DNA from: Phormidesmis sp.
Lineage (GTDB): Bacteria; Cyanobacteriota; Cyanobacteriia; Leptolyngbyales; Leptolyngbyaceae
NCBI GenBank assembly: GCA_965248535.1
Contig: CBDFJR010000002.1
Coordinates: 1,824,001-1,888,000, forward strand
Length of the DNA stretch: 64,000 bases
Direction: 5' to 3'
Positions 10,541-60,266 of the stretch are shown one piece after another (the first letter of the stretch is position 1; each line of letters starts with the position of its first letter). The notes beneath the pieces were generated by a model. The model ran no database searches. It worked only from the letters and a program-made list of their open reading frames with translations, and was not told where the DNA came from. The position numbers were made by a program, and so were the translations under genes.

Positions 10541-10736
10541 GTCGGCAGCAGCCCCTAAAGATACGAGGGTGACGATGCAGACCCAAACAAATTCCTAAAC
10601 CCTTTCTAGTCAAAGGCTGCTGCCAATAGGTGAGCGAATTGTTAGCTGGCAAGTGGGCATAGGGAATACTGTAAAGAAGTACTTCATATAAGCATGAGTA
10701 CTGGATTTACACAGTAAATCCATTGGCAATACAGTT

Positions 10737-11111
10737 ATGACAATTTATGAACGCGCCGCACAGATTTGGGCAGTTCTAGCTTTGGCTGCTCGAAACCGCC
10801 AGATTTTGACCTACGACATTGTTGGGAAATTAATTGGAGTTCCCCGACAGGCGTTAGGGCGGATGCTGGAACCAATTCAGTCTTATTGTTTGGTAAATCA
10901 TCTTCCACCGCTTTCAATTCTTGTGATCAGCGAACAAACAGGGATTCCCGGAACAGGTTTCATTGCGGCTCAAGATATTCCTCGAACTCAGGTTGAAGTG
11001 TTTGGATTCGACTGGTTGGCGCACACAGCACCTTCACCCGAAATTTTAGAGCAAGCTGCCAAACAGCTACCGTCTAATGGCGTTTCAATAGCACTGACTT
11101 CAAAGCCATAA
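10737..11111 (+). CDS. Hypothetical protein, possibly cassette-borne
   Basis: 124-aa ORF with LTY..VGKLIG...IQSYC..NHLPPLSILV...GIPGTGF pattern; lies in a HIP1-free segment. Confidence 0.75.
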   Translation: MTIYERAAQIWAVLALAARNRQILTYDIVGKLIGVPRQALGRMLEPIQSYCLVNHLPPLSILVISEQTGIPGTGFIAAQDIPRTQVEVFGFDWLAHTAPSPEILEQAAKQLPSNGVSIALTSKP

Positions 11112-11153
11112 TTGGCGATAACATAGAAATGCTGTCGAGATGTGAAACGTCGT

Positions 11154-11375
11154 ATGACTACTCGGCTAGAAGTTGAATCAGCGATCAAGCAATTGCCAGA
11201 GAGTGAAGTTCGCGATCTGGCAAAGTGGCTTCAAGACTATCTCGACGAGACGTGGGATCGACAAATTGAAGCAGATTTGGCATCAGGAAAATTAGATCGC
11301 CTCATTGCTCAGGCAGAAAAAGATATTGCAGCAAACAACGTAAGGGATCTCGATGAAATCCTTTGCGACGGCTGA
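11154..11375 (+). CDS. Putative antitoxin
   Basis: Small acidic ORF (WDRQIEADLASGKLDRL) overlapping the downstream toxin-like gene. Confidence 0.7.
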   Translation: MTTRLEVESAIKQLPESEVRDLAKWLQDYLDETWDRQIEADLASGKLDRLIAQAEKDIAANNVRDLDEILCDG

Positions 11376-11610
11376 TTTTTGGAAAGCGTATGGTGAATTG
11401 TCACCTGAGATGCAAAAGCAAGCGCGAAAAACTTATCAGCTTTGGCAGGAAAACTCACTTCATCCATCTTTGCATTTCAAGAAGGTCGGTAAAAACCTTT
11501 GGTCTGCCCGTGTTAGTGGTGGGTTTCGAGCATTAGCCTTGAAAAAGGGCGACGATTACTATTGGATTTGGATCGGTGATCATGATGAATACGAGAGTTT
11601 GTTGAAGTAG
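11353..11610 (+). CDS. ParE/RelE-like toxin
   Basis: FWKAYGEL...HPSLHFKKV...WSARVSGGFRAL...WIWIGDHDEY; about 85 aa. Confidence 0.8.
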   Translation: MKSFATADFWKAYGELSPEMQKQARKTYQLWQENSLHPSLHFKKVGKNLWSARVSGGFRALALKKGDDYYWIWIGDHDEYESLLK

Positions 11611-11626
11611 CTCGTTATGACAAGCC

Positions 11627-11711
11627 ATTTAATAACCCAGTGGAGCGGACGGTACAGAGTCTTCGCGCTACGTTCTGAACCTCTCGCCGCCGCTCACTTT
11701 AGCCGTTAGAA
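11627..11711 (+). other. attC-like integron cassette recombination site (degenerate R'')
   Basis: Left arm AGTG-G-AGCGG-A-CGG (11639-11652) pairs with CCGCCGCTCACT (11687-11698), leaving two extrahelical bases; ends in GTTAGAA at 11705; lies just after the toxin stop. Confidence 0.75.
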
Positions 11712-57341: not shown

Positions 57342-57956
57342 TTGACTGCCACCTTTAAACCCACCGATAGCGTCATTCTGCCCACTAGCTGGAACTGTCT
57401 CAATCCCGTTTGGCAGGGCAACGATCGCGACGTTCAGCAAGGTTTGCCCCACAGCCAGTTAGCCCCCACCTGGCAAATGCTGCTGCTAGGAGATGGTTCC
57501 CCAACTCGTCACCTGCAACTCTTGACAGGCGAACCGACGGAAGTAGACGTGATCGATATGTCTACGATCGGGTTCGATCTCGACAATGCCCCTGCCTCGA
57601 TCGAGCGTGTGCCCGGCCCGCGAGTGCGGCGACAAGTTTGGCTGAGAACTGCCTCTGGGCAACGATTAGCCTATGCCACCTCTTGGTGGGAGCAAAGCCA
57701 CGTTGATGACTATTTGCAGAACCGATCGCTGCCCATCTGGGCCAGTCTCGCCCGGCTGCGAACTGAGCTATATCGAGACGTGCAGGGCATTTGCTATGGT
57801 CACTCTAGCGCCCTAGAAACCGCCTTTGAGCAATCGGGTGCTTTTTGGGGACGACACTATCTTTTCTGGCACCACGGGCAGCCTCTGACTTTGATCTACG
57901 AAGTGTTTTCACCCTACTTACAGAAATATCTGGGTGAAATGCAGCTTCCTCCTTAA
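57342..57956 (+). CDS. Chorismate lyase-like protein (DUF98)
   Basis: LLGDGSPTRHL, RRQVWL, LIYEVFSP. Confidence 0.8.
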   Translation: MTATFKPTDSVILPTSWNCLNPVWQGNDRDVQQGLPHSQLAPTWQMLLLGDGSPTRHLQLLTGEPTEVDVIDMSTIGFDLDNAPASIERVPGPRVRRQVWLRTASGQRLAYATSWWEQSHVDDYLQNRSLPIWASLARLRTELYRDVQGICYGHSSALETAFEQSGAFWGRHYLFWHHGQPLTLIYEVFSPYLQKYLGEMQLPP

Positions 57957-58552
57957 GCGTCCCGAACTGTTCTGAGATAGCGAGGGCGGCAGGGAGTCCC
58001 CCAACAAACCTGCTGTTCTGGCAGTGACGAAAAAACGCTGCTTCTGGCTCCTACTAAAGCGTTGGCTCCAATCTCAACACCTGCCCCGATAAAGCAATCC
58101 GTGGCGATCCAGACTCCGTTGCCGATGGCGATCGCAGCCGTCACCAGCCCAAATCTAGGATCTTGAGGGTCATGACTCCCGGTGCACAAATAGCTTTTTT
58201 GAGAAATCACACACTGCTCACCGATCTGAATCGACTCCAAACTATAGAAAACTACGTCATCGCCGATCCAGCTATAGTCCCCGATCGTCACCTTCCACGG
58301 ATAGGTAAACCGAGCCGTCGGACGAATCAGCACCGCTTTGCCAATTTTTGCCCCAAACAGCCGCAACAGATGACATCGCACCGAGTTCAACGGGTGAGGA
58401 GTCAACGGAAACACGACCCCTTGCACGAGCCACCACAGCAGCACATACCAACCGGGGCGGCCACGATCGAAGCCAGTCTGGTCATAGTGTCGCAAGTCAA
58501 TGAGGGGTTTTACAGCCAAAACCGGGGGACGTTCTGCCGATTCTTCATCCAT
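57953..58552 (-). CDS. wcaF: WcaF-like polysaccharide acetyltransferase
   Basis: LLRLFGAKIG, YPWKVTIGDYSWIG, YLCTGSHD; hexapeptide repeats. Confidence 0.85.
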   Translation of the reverse strand: MDEESAERPPVLAVKPLIDLRHYDQTGFDRGRPGWYVLLWWLVQGVVFPLTPHPLNSVRCHLLRLFGAKIGKAVLIRPTARFTYPWKVTIGDYSWIGDDVVFYSLESIQIGEQCVISQKSYLCTGSHDPQDPRFGLVTAAIAIGNGVWIATDCFIGAGVEIGANALVGARSSVFSSLPEQQVCWGTPCRPRYLRTVRDA

Positions 58553-58554
58553 TG

Positions 58555-59315
58555 TTATGCCGCCTGAGTCATCGATAGTGATGTAGTGATGAATTTATAC
58601 ATATACTTGGGAGTTGAGTTATTTTGAGATTGTTGAAAAGATGATTATGTTAAAAAGCGTAGATTGATTTGTAGAGGTAGATTGCAATGAACCATGAGAA
58701 ACGTCTCACAGCGATGCTCATACCGTTTTATCTAGGAGAGGAGCAAGATCCAGAAGGACGGATGATTCAAGATATGTGGGCATGGGATTTTGAAGACCTA
58801 GAATGTGCTCATGATTACATCCAGTGGTTGTTCCCAATCTCGGAGAAGAGTGCGTTTAACATGGATGCACCCGTTGTAGATGAAGAAGTTATTCAAGCGT
58901 TTCAAAGTGATCAACGCTTGCATCAAAATTTACTGAAATCGTTTACGGTCATGCTTCGGTTTTATGGGTTGCAGTGCGATCGGAAGGAAACGGAAAAAGC
59001 AGTTGTTAGTCGCTCAGAAGACTATCCAATGCGTAAGCGTGAATGGGTATGCAGGTTTGACCACAATTATCTTCGGATTACCCGTATCTTAAAATGCCTA
59101 ATGACATTCGGTTTGGAAGACGAAGCACGAGCATTTTATGAATGCTTGCGACAAATCTACCGTGAAGACAGTGATCAGATTGGAGGGGAGACATTTCAGT
59201 ATTGGGCAAATGCAGTCAAACCCAGCGTGGCAGCATAACAATCCGCTTGCACGCCGACTCTATGAATATAGGTGGTTGAGTTCGAGAGGTTCTTAGCAGC
59301 GAGTGAAGCGGAACG
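58555..59315 (+). mobile_element. Solitary integron-type gene cassette (761 bp)
   Basis: Starts G|TTATGC (58554-58560); the gene ends in the complementary GCATAAC (59233-59239); the attC ends at G|TT (59315); excision restores the RBS-ATG of wcaF. Confidence 0.8.
58687..59238 (+). CDS. Opioid growth factor receptor (OGFr)-like domain protein
   Basis: LECAHDYIQWLFP, FYGL, HNYLRITRILKCL; GAGG RBS. Confidence 0.8.
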   Translation: MNHEKRLTAMLIPFYLGEEQDPEGRMIQDMWAWDFEDLECAHDYIQWLFPISEKSAFNMDAPVVDEEVIQAFQSDQRLHQNLLKSFTVMLRFYGLQCDRKETEKAVVSRSEDYPMRKREWVCRFDHNYLRITRILKCLMTFGLEDEARAFYECLRQIYREDSDQIGGETFQYWANAVKPSVAA

Positions 59316-59321
59316 TTCTCC
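59233..59321 (+). other. attC site
   Basis: R'' GCATAAC; arm TCCGCTT-G-CAC (59242-59252) pairs with GTGAAGCGGA (59303-59312) with one extrahelical base; R' GTT at 59315. Confidence 0.8.
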
Positions 59322-59324
59322 TCG

Positions 59325-60266
59325 TCAAGATTCGGTTTGGGCAACGGCTTGAGAAGTCACTCCAGAAGACTCGGTTTTGCTCGTATTTAAGGTGCCGCCA
59401 CACTGCCGCAGTTCGTAGAGTTTTACGCCAATTTGATATTCATATTGGCTCAACAATCGTCCGTAAATGTAGCCTGCTTTTCCGTCTAAAAAGCCTAACC
59501 GGAAGATGTAGAAAAGAACAAATCGTAAGAGCGGCTTAAATGGAAGTCTGACCCAAATGTTCTTTAAAAATCGCTTGCGCTGCACAGCATTGCCAAAGAA
59601 ATTGGCTCCGATCGTGCCCTGCTCACTCTTGCCCATCAGCAGATTTAAATAAACTTGGGCCTCCCAATTTGAGTAGCGGTTGTGTCGCTCTAGCCAGTGA
59701 TAGAGATCTTTAAAGTCGATGTGCAGCATATCTTGCTTGAGATAGCCAACTTTTCCCGACAAGATGACGTGCTCATGCACCTCGTTATCGCCCGTGTTGC
59801 GAATCTCCTCCGTTTTCAGGTTTTCATAGCGCCCGTGAGAATGGCGAAACAATCGCAGATTCCAATCAGGATATTTGCCGCCGTAGCGAATCCATTGACC
59901 GAGAAAAAAGACTTTGCGATTCAGATAATAGCCCTCACACTCCGATTGCTGAATCGCCGTCTCGATTTCGTCCCAGAGTTCCGGGGGAATGCGCTCATCA
60001 CAATCGACAATCAGCACCCACTCATTGCGAAACGGCAGATTTTCGAGCGACCAGTTTTTCTTCTTCGGCCAACGGCCATTAAATTGAAACTGCACCACCT
60101 GAGCGCCGTAGTTTTGAGCAATCTCGATCGAGCGATCGCGGCTCTGAGAATCGACCACAAACACCTCATCGGCTCTGGCGACACTTTCAAGACACGCCGG
60201 GAGGTTGGCTTCTTCGTTAAGAGCCGGGATGAGCACCGAAACCGGAATTTTGGGCTTAGAGTTCAT
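59325..60266 (-). CDS. Glycosyltransferase family 2
   Basis: VSVLIPALNEE, VVDSQSRD, IVDCDE, VHEH, FLDGKAG. Confidence 0.9.
   Translation of the reverse strand: MNSKPKIPVSVLIPALNEEANLPACLESVARADEVFVVDSQSRDRSIEIAQNYGAQVVQFQFNGRWPKKKNWSLENLPFRNEWVLIVDCDERIPPELWDEIETAIQQSECEGYYLNRKVFFLGQWIRYGGKYPDWNLRLFRHSHGRYENLKTEEIRNTGDNEVHEHVILSGKVGYLKQDMLHIDFKDLYHWLERHNRYSNWEAQVYLNLLMGKSEQGTIGANFFGNAVQRKRFLKNIWVRLPFKPLLRFVLFYIFRLGFLDGKAGYIYGRLLSQYEYQIGVKLYELRQCGGTLNTSKTESSGVTSQAVAQTES

Follow-up and report, generated by a model that had tools for sequence, protein, structure and literature searches.

A single integron cassette between the Shine-Dalgarno sequence and the start codon of hpsU in Phormidesmis sp., most likely inserted by attC × attG recombination

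Background

The attC sites of integron cassettes are recognised by their AAC and GTT cores, by paired L boxes with an extrahelical base, and by unpaired spacers. Recombination between attC and genomic non-att sites (attG) has been described for IntI1-3 in E. coli and V. cholerae, where it occurs at near canonical rates and at a GWT consensus; AAC is the cleavage triplet of attC (Fig. 1 legend), insertion shows no orientation bias, excision is occasional, and the products were named SALINs, of which 3400 were counted in 2469 of 21,105 genomes (Loot et al., bioRxiv 10.1101/2022.09.11.507474). A further case, summarised there, is aadB, which sits as a cassette at secondary sites on the plasmids RSF1010 and pRAY. 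According to excerpts of Cury 2016 (PMC4889954) and Ghaly 2021 (PMC8352920), cyanobacteria carry integrons with a taxon-specific attC model, and secondary-site integration by a remote IntI is one listed origin of CALINs. A literature search for SALINs in cyanobacteria gave nothing relevant among the matches listed. The journal version of the attG study is reportedly Nat Microbiol 9:228, 2024.

Here we describe a lone cassette in the hpsU operon of Phormidesmis sp. and compare it with these systems. The window is the whole stretch of 64,000 nucleotides analysed (GenBank assembly GCA_965248535.1, contig CBDFJR010000002.1, positions 1,824,001 to 1,888,000 of the forward strand), and positions without a contig label are those of the window.

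Results

An insert of 761 bp occupies positions 58555-59315 (C2:1882555-1883315 in genome coordinates), between the start codon of hpsU and the stop codon of a GT2 glycosyltransferase gene. It contains one OGFr_N-family ORF, antisense to the operon, and one attC. Read as an integron cassette on the + strand, it has a G + C content of 42.8%, compared with 50-52% for the contigs, and blastn found it as a single copy in the genome. The left junction (58554..58565, +) consists of a host G followed by the cassette left end, which would supply the outer R′ bases of the circular attC. At the other end, the R″ box (59233-59239) matches the reverse complement of 58554-58560 at every base (7/7), and with its flank 10 of 12 bases are complementary, or 11 if bottom-strand wobble is counted. 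Matches to the left-end string of this grade (7/7 plus at least 10/12) occur 13 times in about 10 Mb on both strands with attC sites excluded, giving a chance of about 0.5% per 3.5 kb searched.

The trinucleotide GTT is found at both ends of the insert (58554-58556 and 59315-59317), the exact cut point within these three shared bases not being fixable by sequence alone, and neither junction carries leftover sequence. With 58555-59315 removed in silico, the − strand runs from the GT2 stop through 2 nt to AGGAG, which the hpsU ATG follows after 4 nt. An earlier note on this DNA had proposed this restoration of stop, Shine-Dalgarno (SD) sequence and start, which we reproduced, and had placed the G at 58554, the R″ box with its TAA overlap, and the G closing the attC at 59315, all of which were verified. 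Both filled-site junctions were spanned by contigs of sequencing runs X1 and X2, with 0 and 2 differences; the two runs come from one study and may include the source sample, so that what they establish is limited to excluding an assembly artefact as the origin of the filled allele. Run X3 gave two 151-nt pieces, neither of which spans a junction. The 5′ spacer of the cassette (58555..58686, +) is A+T-rich (33% G + C). A promoter and terminator scan found a 9/12 promoter-like match at 58624-58651 in this spacer, which is at chance level (2 found, 2.4 expected), and no terminator-like site within the cassette. HIP1 is absent from the cassette, which is uninformative with about 0.8 expected.

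The attC site (59233..59321, +) is 89 nt long, with R″ at 59233-59239, L″ at 59245-59252, L′ at 59303-59309 and R′ at 59315-59321. It carries the AAC and GTT cores and 5-nt spacers, its L boxes pair at 7/7 positions, and the extrahelical G is 59249, position 5 of L″. R″ overlaps the TAA stop of the ORF at 58687-59238. A genome-specific covariance model, built from 16 other attC sites in arrays of the same genome with the hpsU-locus site excluded, scored 59233-59321 at 63.9 bits (E 3.6e-16) on the bottom strand; failure of an attC model to score this hairpin had been named beforehand as grounds for abandoning the cassette reading. Six of the eight L-box pairs change on both sides in the training set, and its covariation score of 0.498 was reached by none of 500 shuffles, while slid structures gave at most 0.064, a control in which the real structure is favoured since the consensus was drawn from the training sequences themselves. 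One detail of the earlier description was not upheld: the core is not a strict GTTRRRY, reading GTT-ATGC instead, and strict GTTRRRY is found in only 11 of 44 cores of this genome.

Of the R′ bases, none but the G and the shared TT agree with the cassette, the remainder being host DNA. The predicted DNA fold of the site is −15.1 kcal/mol as a circle versus −10.4 kcal/mol as inserted. With host bases completing R′ and a weaker predicted fold, the cassette may be partly locked in at the hpsU site.

The cargo ORF (58687..59238, +) encodes 183 aa and matches OGFr_N (PF04664, E 1.1e-31); its SD lies at about 58674-58678, with a duplex of −10.2 kcal/mol. Homologues numbered 1126 among 1145 candidates. 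The predicted structure is confident and all-helical (pLDDT 91.7). The protein matched no NCBIfam family, its best PADLOC match had an E value of only 0.022, and no PDB sequence was better than E 0.8. Its model gave no Foldseek match at E ≤ 0.001, and the best VIA-align Z was 7.7, with none reaching 8. Rv1873 (2jek), whose family we take to be DUF1810, aligned to the model (58687-59235) with Z 6.4 and rmsd 3.9 over 124 of 140 residues, below the level that goes beyond a common helical arrangement; on the model, a distant link of OGFr_N to DUF1810 through Rv1873 is possible. Thirty columns are invariant among 56 close homologues, which hints at enzymatic activity or ligand binding. The cargo is most likely an accessory protein, small and enzyme-like, that would be dispensable at the hpsU site. 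Literature searches found no paper joining integron cassettes with the opioid growth factor receptor, and, among the matches listed, nothing relevant on OGFr as a bacterial or toxin domain.

The distribution of OGFr_N homologues is patchy, with 20 of 89 other genomes of the taxonomic family carrying one, and no OGFr locus in those 20 genomes adjoins hpsU or GT2. One homologue (genome G083) is the last ORF of a five-attC array and starts 129 bp from the preceding cut site, compared with 132 bp at the hpsU locus, and another genome (G063) has a frameshifted OGFr copy with an attC over its stop. At E < 1e-4, an attC accompanies only two of 32 homologue loci; a third locus has a borderline match (E 0.84), and the other 29 lack one. 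A few homologues end in TAAC plus some attC-like bases, which fits decay of attC at these loci.

The gene interrupted from its SD, hpsU (57953..58552, −), is intact and encodes a hormogonium polysaccharide acetyltransferase of the WcaF family (199 aa). Its product matches the HpsU equivalog NF038307 over model positions 1-178 of 178 (341.6 bits, cut-off 305). The previous label wcaF holds at family level, as the product passes PRK10502, but not as the WcaF equivalog, TIGR04008 being failed (201 vs 326), and hpsU is the best name. HpsU is 85-89% identical to that of seven congeners, and in five of them 62-69 synonymous versus 22-30 non-synonymous codon differences were counted. According to an excerpt of PMC10830646, hpsS, hpsT and hpsU belong to one cluster, which hormogonia express. 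The operon partner upstream of hpsU, the GT2 gene (59325..60266, −; 313 aa, PF00535), is possibly hpsT.

The original SD of hpsU, AGGAG, is now displaced to 59318..59322 (−); the same SD stands 4 nt before the ATG in four of seven congeners. The cassette end brings an SD-like AGGCGG (58560..58565, −), a putative replacement, to 7 nt before the hpsU ATG. Its duplex with the 3′ end of the genome's 16S is −5.8 kcal/mol, whereas the displaced SD reaches −8.4 and the genome median is −4.0; of 1761 long ORFs, 30% have a site that binds at least as strongly as AGGCGG. Two congeners have no SD before hpsU at all, so the gene may not need one. As far as the sequence can tell, hpsU is probably still expressed, through read-through across the cassette and the weaker SD-like site; no RNA dataset was among the listed runs that contain the locus.

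In relatives the operon is uninterrupted. GT2 adjoins hpsU without an insert in all seven congeners, with a stop-start gap of −4 to 14 nt, and also in 11 of 15 more distant loci. The congener junctions have AGGAG 4 nt before the ATG in the four cases above, a stop/start overlap in two and GAGG in one. The OGFr gene is absent from the junction in 25 of 25 other loci, 22 of which are close hpsU matches, and no attC was detected in the 22 other hpsU loci scanned. The exact empty junction that the earlier note had predicted was found in none of the seven congeners, none having GTT at that place; the closest (L009) reads G-AT in place of G-TT. One X2 contig joins hpsU to the GT2 stop without a cassette, and a single base separates its GTTCTC from the start codon. 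The short side of this joint is 23 letters, and of 30 hpsU bases about 8 differ (by eye), which marks the contig as that of a related strain and not the ancestor. Several hpsU-GT2 alleles co-occur in run X2. No joint of precise excision, circular cassette or conspecific empty site was among the matches listed for these runs, which are contigs; contigs drop rare variants and are uninformative on excision.

An integrase encoded elsewhere in the genome had been postulated, and two intact-looking integron integrase genes without stops were found (C2:161487-162425 and C2:1131581-1132513), with TIGR02249 scores of 467.9 and 466 bits against a cut-off of 265 that none of 14 controls exceeded. There is no other TIGR02249 match in the genome, and the nearer IntI is about 750 kb from the hpsU cassette. 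One of the two integrases could be aligned with IntI4 (2a3v) across residues 5-315, broken by just one gap of 1 residue (E 3.1e-88), a region which we take to contain the integron-specific I2 helix. Above-cut-off IntI were found in three of five congeners tested, and all eight genomes of the genus have attC sites (5 to 58 per genome, as lower bounds).

A first rule-based attC scan gave 219 matches, mostly chance, and served only as a source of seeds. A profile made of attC sites of this genome found 53 matches at E < 1, against none when the genome was reversed; the 52 at E < 0.05 form 29 loci. Twelve of these follow one of two attI-like repeats, two with intI and 10 without. The other 17 have no such platform; 15 are single (10 of those at E ≤ 1e-3), and platform-free loci with two and three attC also exist. 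Lone cassettes are thus scattered in the genome, as had been surmised from this one locus. The nearest attC matches to the hpsU cassette are 47.6 kb and 75 kb away, and neither type of attI-like platform lies within 6 kb of it. When eight of the 14 other lone sites were compared with five congeners, three were empty-flanked (in 4/5, 3/5 and 4/5 genomes) but with decayed ends, and five gave no usable synteny; the hpsU cassette is the only base-resolved case found.

Several other attC loci were noted. The lone, decayed attC at 11627-11711 (+; 23.1 bits, E 0.00026) belongs to a cassette of about 10643-11705 with a likely left end near 10642. It follows a 124-aa ORF, upstream of which lies a gene that is presumably tatC-like, and its flanks are on different contigs in all five congeners. 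A lone cassette at C2:1958758 (L051), between two convergent conserved genes, is common to one congener (G003, locus L116; 84% over the region) and absent from four others, where the genes are about 10 nt apart. At C2:1340792-1343071 (L049) there is a 2.3-kb insert with one attC, whose flanks are 19-39 nt apart in four congeners; in G003 (L162) another insert, of 1 kb, occupies this position, possibly a reused landing site.

The array heads and their neighbours also showed repeated elements. Nine intI-less arrays are headed by copies of a dispersed repeat, about 80-99% identical in pairs, whose end is a conserved attI-like GTT (C2:375801+, 2140382+ (partial) and 1675298−; C5:43601+, 350335+, 938618−, 1068901−, about 1691590+ and 1941793−), and a second attI-like end is common to the two intI loci and one orphan (C5:797642). 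A module of about 700 bp, present in 17 copies, has an ORF of 123 aa that matches no Pfam family, and its leader is rich in hairpins whose loops vary (for example L045:1130-1498 (−), and L043 beside intI); it lies downstream of intI in one integron here and in six of six congener intI loci checked, and its inner ends are often at HIP1 sites. Group II introns (Rfam RF02001, RF01998) are antisense in R″ of eight attC sites (C2:156856, 1133920, 1136863 and 1673018; C5:45613, 793639, 933035 and 1939398). Identity is 99-100% among six copies of about 700 nt, none of which has a long ORF; one longer copy has an RT-like frame.

Discussion

The matching cassette ends, the attC, the empty operon in relatives and the presence of IntI together point to recombination between attC and attG, and we consider it very probable that the insert is a SALIN, most likely formed in this way at a GWT core. 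This agrees with the earlier proposal of an insertion at a secondary site by a remote IntI, and nothing found here contradicts that proposal. The locus has one CDS and one attC, with no further att site and no integrase nearby. A CALIN, which needs at least two attC, was ruled out, as was an insertion sequence or transposon, there being no transposase and the only ORF of at least 80 aa being the PF04664 one.

With high confidence, we would reconstruct the event as follows. A single cassette would have been excised as a circle from a cassette array, and an IntI encoded elsewhere would have recombined its folded attC bottom strand with a double-stranded genomic non-att GTT in the 4-nt spacer between the hpsU SD and ATG. 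The host G would have been kept at the left, followed by the cassette, with host TT-CTCC completing a poorly paired R′ at the right, from which lower re-excision is expected. The computed empty site does have GTT (GWT) at the crossover and is ordinary DNA, the SD-ATG spacer of a conserved operon; by eye it has only a few scattered bases in common with the genome's two attI-like ends. The CRGM hotspot motif at positions 6-9 right of the cut is absent, with CTCG there instead, and this motif marks IntI1 E. coli hotspots only.

A longer route is improbable. A multi-cassette circle could have entered at attG, all but one of its cassettes being lost afterwards through attC × attC excision, or an insertion made in a donor lineage could have been imported by homologous recombination across the hps operon. 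The platform-free loci with two and three attC, and the mixture of hpsU-GT2 alleles in run X2, would suit such a history, as would the sharing of the C2:1958758 cassette with G003 alone among five congeners, which indicates that inserted alleles can be old or can pass between lineages. Nothing positive requires it, however, the junctions have no leftover sequence, and the attC × attG step is kept, so that it would refine the best explanation and not replace it.

It is very unlikely that an integron or attI-like platform once stood at the hpsU locus and was deleted down to one cassette. Such decay is a recognised origin of CALINs according to Cury 2016 (PMC4889954), and this genome has ten attC loci headed by an attI-like repeat but lacking intI. 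Against this, the base left of the cassette is only 2 nt from the hpsU start codon, no platform, 123-aa module or intI piece is found at the locus, the flanks rejoin to an SD-ATG spacing present in congeners, and the 22 other hpsU loci scanned are free of attC; a platform remnant is thereby largely refuted. Equally slight is the chance that the cassette came in without an integrase, by an illegitimate or transposon-like event that duplicated the 3-bp GTT and carried the attC as passenger. This would account for GTT at both ends, but insertion at random would not be expected to honour the two cassette ends, and this one stops exactly at the attC cut site, starts with the complement of R″ and has a single ORF of no transposase family.

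Insertion by attC × attG recombination thus remains the preferred reading, and it admits a wider, rather doubtful extension: that cassettes act throughout the genus as small non-autonomous mobile elements whose SD-like left end would spare host genes, here uncoupling hpsU from its operon partner and retuning hormogonium-polysaccharide acetylation. There are up to 15 lone cassettes in the genome, several of them in gaps of less than 40 bp between conserved genes, and the left end common to cassettes bears the SD-like AGGCGG on its bottom strand as well, at 7 nt from where the cut falls; the idea of a portable SD itself comes from one site. If true, cassettes could land in translation-initiation regions without silencing the host gene.

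Compared with known systems, the hpsU cassette resembles the SALINs of Loot et al. in having one CDS with one attC, a GWT core and an integrase elsewhere in the genome. It differs from them as a natural, base-resolved cyanobacterial case with an empty operon in relatives, and in the absence of CRGM; the main text of the preprint gives no empty-site comparison of natural SALINs (bioRxiv 10.1101/2022.09.11.507474). Like aadB on RSF1010 and pRAY it is a single complete cassette outside an integron, but aadB lies in sense downstream of a host promoter, whereas the hpsU cassette is chromosomal, antisense to its operon and inside a translation-initiation region. The locus offers a natural attG on which a cyanobacterial IntI could be tried directly. 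The process has already been described and named, and what sets this locus apart is the completeness of the case and its landing place, a tidy natural confirmation of the attG route in a distant phylum that leaves the current model unchanged.
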